Of a DNA stretch of 64,000 nucleotides, positions 23,044 through 42,320 are shown in pieces. The stretch is taken from assembly GCA_963731045.1 (NCBI GenBank), contig CAVSVC010000052.1, forward strand, positions 102,947-166,946, in the 5' to 3' direction. The position numbers and the translations under genes were made by a program. Position 1 is the first letter of the stretch. Every line of letters starts with the position of its first letter. The stretch comes from an uncultured delta proteobacterium (GTDB lineage: Bacteria; Desulfobacterota; BSN033; UBA1163). The notes below the pieces were generated by a model. The model was not told where the DNA came from and searched no databases. It saw only the letters and a list, made by a program, of their open reading frames with translations.

Positions 23044-23057
23044 ACAGACCTCCTGCG

Positions 23058-23140
23058 CAACGAGCATAGAGCAGAGGGCATAGGGTCGAAACTAGAAGAC
23101 AGAATGTTTCTTCTCTATGCTCTATGCCCCATGCCCGATG
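23058..23140. repeat. intergenic inverted repeat with GCATAGAGCA/GGGCATAG-type arms (family also at 29031-29050 + 29181-29203 and 31811-31948)
   Basis: gagcatagagcagagggcataggg ... ctctatgctctatgccccatgccc, with an inner gaaac..gtttc palindrome. Confidence 0.6.
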
Positions 23141-23146
23141 CTTTCA

Positions 23147-24802
23147 TTAGCGTTCTCTGTGTTCTCCGAAGACCTCCCTCAAGGTGTCGGAAATCTCACC
23201 CAAAGAGGCATAGGCCTTCACTGCCTCCAGGATGGGCGGAACCAGGTTTTCCGTTCCGATCGCCGCCTTCTTGAGGATGGCCAGTGTCTCCTTTACCTTC
23301 GCATTGTTTCGCTCATTCTTGACCTTCGAAAGCTTCTCCCTCTGGTATAGCTCCATCTCGGGCTTAATTCGGAGAATATTCCGGAGGGGTTCTTCTTCGA
23401 TTTGAAACTGATTGATTCCGACAATGATCCGTTTCTTTGTTTCGATTTCTTTCTGGTACTGATAGGCACTGTCGGCAATCTCTCCCTGCATGTATCCTGA
23501 CTCAATGGCCTTGATGGCGCCGCCCATGTCTTCAATCTTCTGAATGTATTCCGTTGCCTTTTTCTCGATTTCCAGGGTCAGGGCTTCCACCGCATAGGAG
23601 CCTGCCAGAGGGTCGATGATGTCGGCAACGCCGCTTTCATAGGCAATCAACTGCTGGGTTCTCAAGGCGATTCGAACGGAGTCCTCTGTCGGAAGGGCAT
23701 AGGCCTCGTCCTTTGAGTTGGTGTGAAGGGACTGGGTGCCTCCGAGAACGGCGGCAAGGGCCTGGAAGGCAACCCTGACCACATTGTTATCGGGCTGCTG
23801 GGCCGTCAGGGAACAGCCCGCCGTCTGAGTGTGAAAACGCAACATACAGGAATCGTCTTTCTTTGCCTTGAATCGTTCCTTCATGATCTTTGTCCAGAGT
23901 TTCCGGGCGGCCCTGAATTTTGCCACCTCCTCGATGAAGGTGTTGTGGCAGCAGAAGAAGAAGGCCAGCCTGGATGCAAAGGAATCCACGTCCAGACCTG
24001 CCTTGATGGCAGCCTCGACGTAGGCAATCCCGTCGGCCAGGGTAAAGGCGACCTCCTGAACCGCCGTGCACCCGGCTTCGCGCATGTGGTAGCCGCTGAT
24101 ACTGATCGTATTCCAGCGGGGGGTCCTGTCTTTGCAGAAGGCAAAGAGATCCGTCACGATGCGCATCGATTCCAGGGGAGGGTAGATATAGGTGCCCCTT
24201 GCGGCGTATTCCTTGAGGATATCGTTCTGGATGGTTCCCTGGACAACGTCGGATTTGACCCCTTGTTTTTCCGCCACAGCGATGTACATGGCCAGAAGAA
24301 TGGCTGCCGTGGCGTTGATGGTCATCGAGGTGGAGACCTTGTCCAGTGGGATGCCGTCAAATAGGATCTCCATATCCCGAAGGGTATCGATCGCAACCCC
24401 CACCTTCCCGACCTCTCCCTCTGCCAGGGGATGGTCCGAATCGTAGCCGATCTGGGTTGGAAGATCGAAGGCGACACTCAATCCGGTCTGTCCCTGGTCG
24501 AGGAGGTATTTATAACGTTTGTTGGTCTCCTCCGCCGTGGCAAACCCCGCATACTGACGCATCGTCCAGAACCGGCCGCGGTACATGGTCGGCTGAACCC
24601 CTCGCGTGAAGGGGACCTCTCCCGGGAATCCCAGGTCACGGCAGTAATCCATCTCCTCAACGTCCACAGGGGTATAAAGGCGTTTCTCTTCGATGTGGGA
24701 AGTCGTTTCGAAGGAAGGTTCCCGCTCCGGGGACCTGGAGAGGGCCTTCTTCAGAGTTGTCTTTTCCCATTGCTCAAGTCCTTCTCTTATCTTTTTCGTC
24801 AT
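23147..24802 (-). CDS. methylmalonyl-CoA mutase large subunit (substrate-binding TIM-barrel domain), copy 1; Tyr/Arg active-site pattern
   Basis: ..[43 protein letters not shown].. retains the Tyr (GYDSD) and Arg (AAR) that specify methylmalonyl-CoA. GAGGTG lies upstream of the ATG. Confidence 0.9.
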
Positions 24803-25032
24803 TCTTTCACCTCATCTTTCGTAAGTCGCAAGGCGTAGGCGTGAGGGGTTTTAGACTCCTTCAACGACTTGCGACCGGTGCGTGCCCCGCAGGTCCCGGC
24901 TTTCAGGGAGGTCAAGGGGCGCAATATCATAGTGAGCTTACCTTACCGGGAAGCCCTTCAACACACTTAGGACCGTCGAACGGCCCCGCCCTTTAGGGTG
25001 GAGAGCTTCACTTGCCACTGACGACTTGCGAT

Positions 25033-26607
25033 TTACAGCGGGATGTTGCCATGCTTCCGCCAGGGGTTTGTGTCGGTTTTGGTCTTTAGAATCTCCAGGG
25101 CTTGAATGATCTTGGGACGGGTCTGCTCGGGTTCGATGATCTCATCCACATAGCCCAGTTCCGCCGCCTTGTAGGGGCTGGCAAACTTTTCCTGATATTC
25201 CGAAATAAGACGACGCCGGGTTTCCGCGGGATCGCCGGCATTCTTGATCTCGTTGCGGAAGACGATGTTGACCGCTCCATCGGCTCCCATGACGGCGATT
25301 TCCGCATTGGGGTAGCAGTAGTTGATATCCGCCCGGATATGTTTGCTTGACATCACGTCATAGGCCCCCCCGTAACCTTTGCGGGTGATGATCGTAATCT
25401 TGGGCACGGTGGCTTCACAGAAGGCATAGAGAAGTTTGGCTCCGTGCCGGATGATGCCCCTTTCTTCCATGTCGATTCCGGGAAGAAAACCGGGAACATC
25501 CACCAAGGTGACGATGGGGATGTTAAAGCAATCGCAAAAGCGGACAAACCGGCCTCCCTTAACTGAAGAATCCGGGTCAAGGGATCCGGCCATCCAGTTG
25601 GGCTGATTGGCCACGATCCCTGCCGGCATCCCGTTAAATCGTCCAAACCCGACGATGATGTTCTTCGCCCAATCCTTCTGCACTTCAACGAAGTGACCAT
25701 GATCCACGACGGCCAGGATGATCTTTTTCATATCGTAGACCTTCCGGGAACTTTCCGGGATGACCGTCTTCAGCGATTCGTCCATGCGGTTTGGATCGTC
25801 CGTACAGGGAATGACAGGGGGTTTTTCACGATTGTTCTGGGGGAGGAATCTGAGAAGCTCCTTGGTCAGGCGAAGGGTGTCTTCGTCGCTTTCACCGGCA
25901 AAATGTGCGACTCCGCTCTTCTCCATGTGGACCTTTGACCCTCCCAGAACCTCCGAGGTGATGGGTTTGCCGTCTGCGGTCTCCGTCCTCTTCAGAGCGG
26001 CCCTGATGACATCGGGTCCGGTAATATGGAGGTAACTTGTCTTCTTCGTCATCAGAATGAAGTCGGTCATGGCGGGAGAATAGACTGCTCCTCCTGCGCA
26101 GGGCCCCATGATCGCGGAGATCTGAGGGATGACGCCGGAGGCAAGAACATTCCGGAGAAAGATATAGGCGTACCCCGCCAGACTCTCCACTCCCTCCTGG
26201 ATTCGGGCGCCGCCTGAATCATTCAGGCCGATGACCGGGGCCCCCATCTTCATGGCCATGTCCATCACCTTGCAGATCTTATCGGCGAAGGCCATGCCCA
26301 GCGCCCCGCCGAAAACGGTAAAGTCCTGCGAGAAAACGAAGACCAAACGTCCGTCTATCTTCCCGTAGCCTGTGACAACGCCATCCCCGTAGAATTTCTT
26401 TTCGTCCATCCCGAAATCGGTACAGCGATGGGTGACAAAACGGTCCAGCTCAACAAAAGTCCCTTCGTCCAGGAGCTGGTGGATGCGTTCCCGGGCCGTC
26501 AGTTTTCCGTCTTTGTGTTGTTTGTCGATTCTCTCCTGGCCGCCTCCCAGCAGAGCTTCTTCCGTCCTCTTTTCCAGTTCCTGCCGTATGGTTTCAATGG
26601 AACTCAT
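25033..26607 (-). CDS. acyl-CoA carboxylase carboxyltransferase subunit (propionyl-CoA carboxylase beta / methylmalonyl-CoA decarboxylase-transcarboxylase 12S-like)
   Basis: Duplicated carboxyltransferase domains of about 520 aa. The ATG at 26607 ([14 protein letters not shown]) fits family N-termini. Confidence 0.85.
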
Positions 26608-41828: not shown

Positions 41829-41894
41829 TCTTGTCGGTTCTCCTCAACTTTCATCAATCCATGACAGCTATCTTTATTTATAAGATACTCATGC

Positions 41895-42209
41895 CTAACC
41901 CTTCAATATCTCCCTGGAAGTGACGATCCGTTGAACCTCGGCCGTCCCCTCATAGAGGGTTGTTCCAAGACGGAACCCGGGGGTTCCCTTTTCAAGACGA
42001 AGGCGCTGATCCCCTTGCTTTTTTTCGCATTCCGGTCGGCGACCGCCCAGGTGACGGTGACGCGAAGCCTCACCGCTCGTAATCAGGGTTTTGGTGCCGT
42101 TCAGGACATAGGATTCTTTCTGGCGGGTGGCTGTGGTGCGGATATTGGCCGCATCCGAACCGGTAGTATTCCGGATTATTTCCTGTTCGGGGGTCAGACG
42201 GAATTCCAT
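41895..42209 (-). pseudogene. acyl-CoA dehydrogenase remnant (internally deleted)
   Basis: About 105 aa hold only the ACAD N-terminus (MEFRLTPEQE), a mid-block (GSDAANIRTTA..YVLNGTKTLITSG) and C-terminus (YEGTAEVQRIVTSREIL). The roughly 280 residues between them are missing. Confidence 0.6.
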
Positions 42210-42224
42210 GGGCTGGTCAGATTT

Positions 42225-42310
42225 GAGATTTGAGATGTGCGATCTTAGATTGAAGGATCTAAATCTCCAATCTGAAATCACCCATCTGAAATGCTCCAAT
42301 CCATCTGCAA
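42225..42310. repeat. tandem AGATTTG-unit hairpin
   Basis: cagatttgagatttgagat ... atctaaatctccaatctgaaatc ... atctgaaatg. Confidence 0.5.
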
Positions 42311-42320
42311 GCCGGAGGGA

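Follow-up and report, generated by a model that had tools for sequence, protein, structure and literature searches.

Paired arrays of short tandem units between genes have been listed once before, for Geobacter metallireducens GS-15. Three classes of sites were described in its genome (Aklujkar et al., 2009, BMC Microbiol 9:109, PMC2700814), which consist of four copies of GTTGCTYN (class 1), three copies of TCTCCGTS[Y] (class 2) and five copies of MTYCTGA (class 3). The sites belong to several families with dozens of intergenic copies, and they occur mostly as opposite-strand pairs at variable distance, one pair being located between proB and proA. The distance between class 1 sites and the insertion points of ISGme8/9 is fixed, and the authors read the sites as putative binding sites for IHF/HU or a global regulator, in an account that contained neither statistics nor comparative evidence (PMC2700814). 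No further description of this architecture was found in the literature. Here we analyze hairpins with arms of tandem 7- or 8-nt units in a stretch of 64,000 nucleotides (the window) from an uncultured delta proteobacterium (contig CAVSVC010000052.1, positions 102,947 to 166,946), in which they occupy many spacers of an operon for acyl-CoA metabolism. They probably represent dispersed palindromic repeat elements, small and non-coding and of several families, similar to repetitive extragenic palindromic (REP) sequences and their BIME composites or to miniature inverted-repeat transposable elements (MITEs). The elements are of the kind listed for Geobacter, but the unit families of the window are new.

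Tandem-arm hairpins in the acyl-CoA operon

The window has a G+C content of about 54% and contains a minus-strand gene cluster at 22642-44524. According to Pfam searches the cluster encodes two pairs of methylmalonyl-CoA mutase (MCM) large and B12-binding subunits, a carboxyltransferase, MeaB, acyl-CoA dehydrogenases (ACADs), thiolases, two HdrA-like flavoproteins, an HdrD-like protein, the electron transfer flavoprotein (ETF) subunits alpha and beta, and a 3-hydroxyacyl-CoA dehydrogenase. Because of these assignments the label acyl-CoA operon is sound. A first inspection of the letters alone (the original prediction) had claimed that every intergenic spacer of this operon contains a hairpin with arms of tandem short repeats, and that the repeat unit differs from spacer to spacer; it had suggested that the hairpins have a structural function and could act as contingency loci.

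All window spacers were inspected and folded in the sense orientation, i.e., as the minus strand. Of the 17 junctions of the operon, about 10-12 were found to contain a long imperfect hairpin with arms of tandem 7- or 8-nt units (Table 1), and 10 of the 22 window spacers of at least 60 nt contain an array together with an inverted partner. The design withstood the comparison with shuffled sequence that the original prediction had itself proposed: for each of the 10 spacers the observed score was reached by none of 200 dinucleotide shuffles, and any array at all appeared in at most 3% of them. Tandem Repeats Finder (TRF) reported arrays on both arms with periods of 7 or 8 and 2.6-8.8 copies. 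Pairing of TRF arrays alone recovers only 3-5 of the about 13 window elements, and self-alignment, which counts palindromes twice, was replaced; detection was therefore based on split-window alignment and scoring of arrays against their flanks.

All six places named in the original prediction carry a tandem-arm hairpin, with RNA fold z-scores of -2.3 to -5.9. The weakest are 33655-33720, where the inverted partner within 33664-33715 is short, and 40527-40666, where the z-score is only -2.3. The nesting of GCATAGR arms outside an inner hairpin at 29031-29203 is visible in the sequence as well as in the minimum free energy (MFE) fold, and the notion of one recurring architecture with many unit sequences, rather than one motif, was borne out. 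The word "every" went too far: the spacers 26638-26768 (with a plain GC hairpin), 27756-27840, 31182-31367 and 41829-41894, which are 66-186 nt long, are devoid of a tandem-arm hairpin, and at three further junctions the spacers have 22 nt or less. Conversely, the list was incomplete, since it omitted the hairpin at 43180-43262, the degenerate arrays at 24803-25032 and three hairpins in the next operon (about 49640-49706, 50826-50918 and 51826-51908). As these three lie in the adjacent Liv-type ABC transporter operon, the elements are not a property of the acyl-CoA operon.

For comparison, 80 syntenic loci were gathered by one scan with the ACAD, and the comparison extended to 200 related and metagenomic loci (labels L001 etc.), with a length of 2-21 kb per locus. 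Searches for matching arrays covered 1.9 Mb of loci, and the census of arrays covered 430 kb of close loci. A metagenome scan for TGGAATAN arrays yielded at least 120 contigs. The nearest genomes are uncultured Thermodesulfobacteriota metagenome-assembled genomes labelled as Syntrophaceae or Syntrophorhabdus, with a protein identity of 78-84% and a DNA identity of only about 77%. The close loci contain 174 non-coding arrays, 100 of which have period 7 and 62 period 8, while periods of 9-12 are absent. An inverted partner within 260 nt was present for 58% of them, compared to 4-5% in control flanks that were only reversed or only complemented. In a typical element, each arm is made of 3-6 tandem units of 7 or 8 nt, the second array is inverted relative to the first, and the loop between them measures 2-236 nt (median 39). 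Within and between genomes, 1-3 positions of a unit vary around a conserved core, e.g., TGGAAT+NN. Elements of this type are common in related sediment bacteria, and they are present in Desulfosarcina alkanivorans PL12 (NZ_AP021874.1), the genome of which is complete, as well as in contigs from different assemblers; therefore, they are not an assembly artefact.

In total, 103 non-redundant elements were gathered, 93 of which are located between co-directional genes. Among 186 co-directional spacers of close relatives that reach 60 nt, at least 58 (at least 31%) carry one. The first arm begins a median of 5 nt past the stop codon, and a median of 27 nt separates the end of the second arm from the next start. 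In 84 of 93 elements the purine-rich array precedes the other, and the same order prevails by 66 to 3 among the TGGAATAN elements from metagenomes. This was considered as an orientation relative to transcription, but that idea was rejected because the property is strand-symmetric; since purine-first order survives reverse complementing, a count of 32 "same" versus 28 "opposite" orientations is uninformative. The distribution of TGGAATAN elements over co-directional, divergent and convergent regions (69/17/14%) resembles that of all spacers in the same contigs (73/15/12%). Two regularities stand out, namely, the restriction to periods 7 or 8 and the nearly invariant first position of the purine-rich arm. 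A role of the units as multi-frame stop signals was also rejected, since the arms close 1.0 frames on average, versus 1.38 in composition-matched shuffles.

A different type of hairpin, GC-rich and of the form CCCCTCCCC...GGGGAGGGG, has the pyrimidine-rich arm first and loops of only 3-5 nt. It was seen at L002:13650-13698, L003:17968-18014 and L017:15613-15659, and it fills orthologous spacers also in L004, L006, L008, L009, L013 and L014. Two unusually long pure arrays are (TGTTTTG)7 at L011:3950-4000, which is part of a multi-level nested hairpin, and a 174-nt array of CAGAGGA/CAGATGA units at L172:1625-1798.

Turnover and dispersal among related genomes

The comparison of orthologous junctions shows that the elements have been inserted where the genes are otherwise closely spaced, and that their turnover is much faster than that of the flanking genes. 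At each junction, orthologous spacers may be as short as about 0 nt or as long as about 300 nt, and several genomes (L016, L018, L022, L029, L030) are compact. The spacers filled by TGGAATAN hairpins in the window have roughly 0-30 nt in L016, L018, L029, L030 and L007, and the spacer orthologous to 38587-38741 has 10-15 nt in L018, L030, L036 and L037. Desulfosarcina widdelii (L070) and L075 have the empty site TAA..AAGGAGG; in L063, L079 (D. alkanivorans), L062 and L067 an AAGGRKTC element lies exactly between the stop codon and the ribosome-binding site, with loops of different length. No obvious duplication was seen in this alignment of empty and filled sites, but the first unit (AAGG..) is like the target and the boundary is blurred. 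The AAGGRKTC units of the inserted element resemble the AAGGAGG ribosome-binding site next to the insertion point. This likeness may reflect a preferred target, or an element that arose when the Shine-Dalgarno region was duplicated. In the window, the element at 35702-35903 overlaps the 3' end of an HdrA-like gene (35890-37221; distance to the stop -14 nt), and the TGA stop codon (35890-35892) as well as the last few codons of this gene come from the first units of its purine-rich arm.

Families are exchanged at a given junction and recur at others. At least 14 unit families were encountered in more than one species and at more than one junction. Next to the orthologous ACAD, relatives carry GGAGTTC, AAATTCG, CAAATGT, GACGCGGT, AAACACC, TAAACTC, GATGTGR, AAGGRKTC and other units. 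The junction of ACAD and HdrA is occupied by different families or by GC-rich hairpins among genomes with 91-95% identical ACAD genes. The AAATTCG family is present at the junction of HdrD and ETF beta in the window, and at that of ACAD and HdrA in L016, L017, L021, L025 and L026. The families are thus common to several genomes at non-orthologous sites. Within a genome they are homogenized, and they change by whole-unit insertions or deletions: orthologous copies differ by whole units in L003 versus L012 (8 nt) and among L002/3/5/12/25, and the TGGAGT variant is confined to the L001/L008 lineage, with 15 copies at three separate sites in L001, while almost only TGGAAT is found elsewhere.

Elements also nest in one another's loops, as in the window (29028-29203), and the tandem-arm hairpins of some relatives hold GC-rich or REP-like palindromes in the loop. 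One of these is a second, REP-like family, a non-tandem palindromic repeat (...CGTCATTCCGGC...CCGGAATCCAG.../...CTGGATTCCGG...GCCGGAATGACG) that recurs in the window (16882-17083) and is nested in hairpin loops of L008 and L026.

The most direct sign of mobility is an element shared by two metagenome contigs. The TGGAATAN elements in the metagenome contigs have a common apex, ATGGG...CCCAATATTCCA, and unrelated loops, and a conserved 25-mer directly precedes the first arm in 11 contigs among those listed. In L149 (minus strand, about 440-760) and L165 (10240-10560) an element of about 300 nt is about 99% identical, while the flanks are unrelated on both sides. It consists of a left end, GAACTTAGTTCGCTTCGCTCACAAT, a TGGAATAN tandem-arm hairpin with variable cargo in the middle, and a right end, AATATGTTGTAGAAATTCCGAGACGTTWAAT; the ends are asymmetric and lack a terminal inverted repeat. 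The left end is also present in L094, L103, L107, L116, L144, L152, L164, L172 and L199. The two copies differ by an extra palindrome of 44 nt (ACCCTGTTAAAT...ATTTAACAGGGT) in the hairpin loop of L165 (10345-10390), which is a recent nested insertion. The whole unit looks like a non-autonomous mobile element. An autonomous insertion sequence (IS) with the same ends was not found in the 1.9 Mb of loci, as matching arrays 350-4000 nt apart enclose only host genes, and Pfam scans of 30 of the about 55 window genes revealed no transposase.

Carriage by phages was also considered and rejected. In 53 viral contigs (L201-L253) the TGGAATAN pattern was matched, but what these contigs hold is a different feature, three GGAATATT units that abut one another in contexts conserved among phages, and only 5 of 58 matches have a downstream partner. 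The unit, GGAATATTCC, is itself a palindrome, the contexts are few, and single GAATATTCC copies occur nearby. These triplets look like iterons or operator repeats, not like tandem-arm hairpins.

A probable nature as dispersed repeat elements and a possible effect on the transcript

That the spacers are filled by dispersed palindromic repeat elements is the explanation we favor. The tolerance of such insertions within operons might be due to their fold. As the arms lie between the stop codon and the ribosome-binding site, the transcribed insert should fold out between them. The hairpin would then sequester the untranslated RNA and bring the upstream stop codon close to the next ribosome-binding site. 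The effect on the host would probably be that of REP-like intercistronic stem-loops, i.e., on segmental mRNA stability or processing.

Several points weigh against this explanation. The effect on RNA is inferred throughout. For the window elements neither a transposase, nor a target-site duplication, nor sharp termini were found, and the outer boundaries are fuzzy because the unit number varies. Copies of one family in the window mostly have unrelated loops, and thus transposition of a whole element is shown only for the metagenomic subfamily with the conserved 25-mer end. The incongruence between the elements and the ACAD tree could also result from recombination of spacers rather than from transposition. 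In addition, the gene calls in the comparison loci stem from a crude home-made caller.

The original prediction missed that the hairpins are dispersed repeat-element families with rapid turnover, common to several genomes and already recorded in G. metallireducens. Like the Geobacter sites, which have 3-5 tandem copies of a 7-9-nt unit in opposite-strand pairs at variable distance, the arrays described here have short units (period 7 or 8 in 162 of the 174 arrays of the close loci), frequent inverted partners and loops of variable length. The GAGACRCG family, present only in L013, corresponds to the class 2 unit read on the opposite strand. In contrast, the window units are TGGAATAN, GCATAGR, AGATTKS, AAATTCG and AGTCGTRA, arrays of class 1 or class 3 are absent from the window and from the 1.9 Mb of loci, and the host is an uncultured Syntrophales-like bacterium.

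REP, BIME and REPIN sequences of Enterobacteria and Pseudomonas are likewise imperfect palindromes with many intergenic copies, and as inverted doublets they often give rise to hairpins. They are frequent between cistrons and just past stop codons, occur in several families per genome, are nested or clustered, and are targets of IS insertion (PMC3116915), as are the Geobacter class 1 sites. However, a REP arm is a single imperfect palindrome of 20-40 nt, with a conserved 5' tetranucleotide, and not an array of 7-8-nt units in variable number, and REPINs have a cognate RAYT transposase (Y1 HUH). Bacterial MITEs (Correia/NEMIS, ERIC, RUP, Nezha) are short and non-autonomous, with inverted ends and a variable non-coding interior. 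They share these features with the present elements, as well as the insertion into intergenic DNA with co-transcription, presence/absence polymorphism (here, the empty sites in L070, L075, L018 and L016) and copies between unrelated flanks (here, L149 and L165). No target-site duplication, sharp termini or parent IS were seen in the loci analyzed here, and the inverted ends differ from those of MITEs in that they are made of tandem units in variable number. A looser relation exists to the TAACTGA heptamers of Beggiatoaceae and the STRR heptamers of cyanobacteria, many intergenic 7-nt arrays of several unit types with an unexplained phylogenetic spread (PMC4679880). Those arrays are essentially direct (169 direct sets versus 1 inverted in BOGUAY; PMC4679880), whereas 58% of the arrays studied here have an inverted partner.

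A more far-reaching idea, which we regard as doubtful, is that the tandem-arm hairpins form a distinct superfamily of Thermodesulfobacteriota mobile elements, in which the 7- or 8-nt units and the purine-first polarity come from a shared mechanism. This might be an enzyme or chaperone that binds single-stranded DNA or RNA and reads one unit per domain. Alternatively, only elements of this kind may survive in transcribed operons, e.g., by escape from Rho. One may speculate that the purine-first order prevents a C/U-rich arm from lying open to Rho while its partner has yet to be transcribed. In agreement with this speculation, the loops are very short in all of the GC-rich hairpins with the pyrimidine-rich arm first. 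If the idea holds, the families may provide a natural library of hairpins that pair independently of register and determine the fate of mRNA segments in very long operons for catabolism.

Alternative explanations

The original prediction had suggested a structural function, and host-selected RNA stem-loops are the rival that survives best, although we consider them unlikely. They would serve as barriers to 3'-exonucleases, as RNase III sites or as shields against Rho loading, the units being a by-product of stem lengthening. Long hairpins can indeed be formed by the DNA or the RNA, the folds are stable (z-scores of -2 to -6.5), and the arms leave the ribosome-binding site free. Read-through is expected, because a terminator-like U tract is missing: of 15 hits that resemble an intrinsic terminator (a short GC-rich stem followed by a U tract), a number below the shuffle expectation, none coincides with a tandem-arm hairpin in the sense orientation. 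The frequency in co-directional spacers of close relatives, a lower bound, agrees with such a role, and the purine-rich arm in first position would hide the C/U-rich arm from Rho. Structure as the reason for the existence of the elements, however, is not supported. An excess of G.U over A.C is absent from the sense strand, with 80 wobble-type mismatches versus 103 in antisense and 283 other mismatches, and the sense folds of the window spacers are not consistently more stable than the antisense folds. When the unit order in one arm was permuted, the arm-to-arm match was 16.5 versus 17.7 for the native order, and p was 0.05 or less in only 3 of 76 elements, so that mirror-image co-variation of the arms was not found. 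The lack of a wobble signature, together with matching that survives the shuffling of units, therefore places the complementarity at the level of the unit consensus, and pairing is thus possible in any register. This complementarity looks like the result of descent and array homogenization, rather than of compensatory selection at the RNA level. Moreover, the same junctions have spacers of 0-25 nt in related genomes, and divergent and convergent regions are occupied at baseline frequency.

It is improbable that the arrays are sites for proteins that bind double-stranded DNA, i.e., IHF/HU or a global regulator as proposed for Geobacter, with one contact per unit and a multimer that bends or loops the DNA. 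The conserved unit core with variable positions, the irrelevance of unit order for arm matching, the variable distance between paired arrays, here as well as in Geobacter (PMC2700814), and the targeting of Geobacter class 1 sites by IS elements at fixed distance are in agreement with it. However, the families, at least 14 in one clade and several in one operon, would need as many specific proteins. The sites lie within operons and not at promoters, and no IHF-like consensus was noticed in the units, although no scan for one was made. Abutting sites of 7-8 bp are also short for helix-turn-helix recognition, which counts against this view. The comparative evidence argues for reading such arrays as repeat elements instead of putative IHF/HU sites, as they are annotated in Geobacter.

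Generation in place, without mobility, has an equally low probability in our view. Slippage would expand a motif, template switching would add the inverted copy, the arrays would homogenize independently, and the likeness of families would be due to convergence or gene conversion. The whole-unit differences between orthologous copies, the gradual shift of the unit type along an arm in L011 and L009, the likeness of the AAGGRKTC units to the ribosome-binding site at the point of insertion and the unrelated loops of same-family copies are all compatible with this view. It does not readily account for the same unit family and apex (ATGGG...CCCAAT) in many unrelated metagenome contigs, for the same family at different junctions in different species, for wholesale replacement between relatives with 95% identity, or for an identical element between unrelated flanks.

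That the arms are contingency loci, which switch neighboring genes on or off by slippage, is very improbable: short tandem units are prone to slippage and the unit number does differ among relatives (e.g., by one 8-nt unit between L003 and L012), but the arrays, with periods 7-8, lie between the stop codon and the next ribosome-binding site, outside reading frames, promoter hexamers and promoter spacers, promoter-like sites are not enriched in the elements (5 versus 9.1 expected), and with register-independent pairing a change by one unit would barely alter the hairpin.

In syntrophic and sulfate-reducing Thermodesulfobacteriota, acyl-CoA metabolism and electron transfer are encoded in long operons, and the stoichiometry of the subunits is important there. 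Single spacers of about 0-25 nt are extended by the elements to 100-300 nt. Provided that their action is that of REP stem-loops, the elements would add a major, so far overlooked level of post-transcriptional control and of genome plasticity in the phylum. The repeat-element reading is testable in two cultured organisms with complete genomes, D. alkanivorans and G. metallireducens, which carry such elements or sites. For annotation, the elements are a source of spurious open reading frames (ORFs) and of wrongly called starts. Short-read assemblies are likely to break at them, and they could serve as strain markers.

Further features of the window

The tandem-arm elements of the window are compiled in Table 1.

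Table 1. Tandem-arm elements of the window, with positions, arms, genomic context and statistics.
Position	Strand	Element	Arms and context	Statistics
23057-23142	-	GCATAGR-family hairpin (7-nt units)	arms ~23057-23092 and ~23106-23141; between MCM large-subunit and B12-binding-subunit genes	TRF period 7 on both arms; RNA MFE -40.6, z -5.9, 0/200 shuffles; shuffle test 0/200
24803-25032	-	degenerate CGCAAGT/CGTCAGT 7-nt units; possibly an eroded family member	at both spacer ends, weak outer stem	inverted pair 24821-24836/25021-25036 scores only 12; sense fold z 0.0, no better than shuffles
29028-29203	-	nested pair	outer GCATAGR arms 29031-29053 and 29181-29203; enclosed TGGAATAN hairpin 29081-29167 (arms 29081-29101 and 29147-29167)	inner hairpin z -1.6 by itself; MFE fold of the spacer pairs outer and inner arms alike
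31811-31948	-	GCATAGR-family hairpin	arms ~31823-31844 and ~31926-31947; between MCM large-subunit and B12-binding-subunit genes	20-bp stem, loop ~80 nt; RNA z -4.2, 0/200 shuffles
33655-33720	-	AGATTTS array	33664-33690 clean 3.9 copies of 7-nt AGATTTC; short weak inverted partner 33700-33715	fold z -2.4, 3/200 shuffles; tandem score 17, inverted score 11, 0/200 shuffles
35702-35903	-	TGGAATAN hairpin (8-nt)		found by TRF, inverted pair and shuffle test
37235-37411	-	TGGAATAN hairpin	6-9 units per arm, longest in the window; between acyl-CoA dehydrogenase and HdrA-like genes	spacer MFE -72.3, z -6.5
38587-38741	-	TGGAATAN hairpin	between ETF alpha and acyl-CoA dehydrogenase genes	z -3.9
40527-40666	-	AAATTCG/CGAATAT-family hairpin (7-nt)	CGAATAT/TTTCGAG units, ~25 pairs including G.U; between HdrD-like and ETF beta genes	z only -2.3, 2/200 shuffles
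42217-42303	-	AGATTKS-family hairpin	directly downstream of 3-hydroxyacyl-CoA dehydrogenase gene, upstream of truncated acyl-CoA dehydrogenase remnant	z -4.15, 0/200 shuffles
43180-43262	-	AGTCGTRA-unit hairpin	between thiolase and 3-hydroxyacyl-CoA dehydrogenase genes	z -4.2, 0/200 shuffles
~49640-49706 (approximate)	-	GGTGAT-type (6-7 nt) tandem-arm hairpin	Liv-type ABC transporter operon	from the fold of spacer 49527-49716
50826-50918	-	GGCGTGA/GGCGCAA (7-nt) hairpin with inner hairpin	between two permease genes	z -2.1, 6/200 shuffles
51826-51908	-	TGGAATAN hairpin	outside the acyl-CoA operon	z -5.45, 0/200 shuffles

Several genes of the operon are interrupted. One ACAD is split into two overlapping ORFs, 28307-29011 with the N domain and 27841-28608 with the middle and C domains, and a thiolase-like gene is likewise split into 30309-31181 and 29810-30421. 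Of a third ACAD, at 41895-42299, only about 100 amino acids are left. The split and truncated genes may represent frameshifts, pseudogenes or homopolymer errors of long reads. No paralogy was found between the two 644-aa proteins that adjoin TGGAATAN hairpins. A comparison of the whole window with Rfam 15 gave no match at the gathering score, and a tRNA scan of the window found nothing.

At 22605-22633 there is a direct 7-nt array (AGGCGAA AGGCGTA AGGCTGA AGCATAG) with no clear inverted partner, which is followed by a short GCCTGCCTGCCGCAGGCAGG hairpin. The intergenic region 54645-55148 (504 nt) contains a perfect 20-bp palindrome with a 2-nt loop at 54940-54981 (GTGTCCCTTCACCCCGGTCT / AGACCGGGGTGAAGGGACAC) and an adjoining short hairpin at 54891-54910, neither of them with tandem units.

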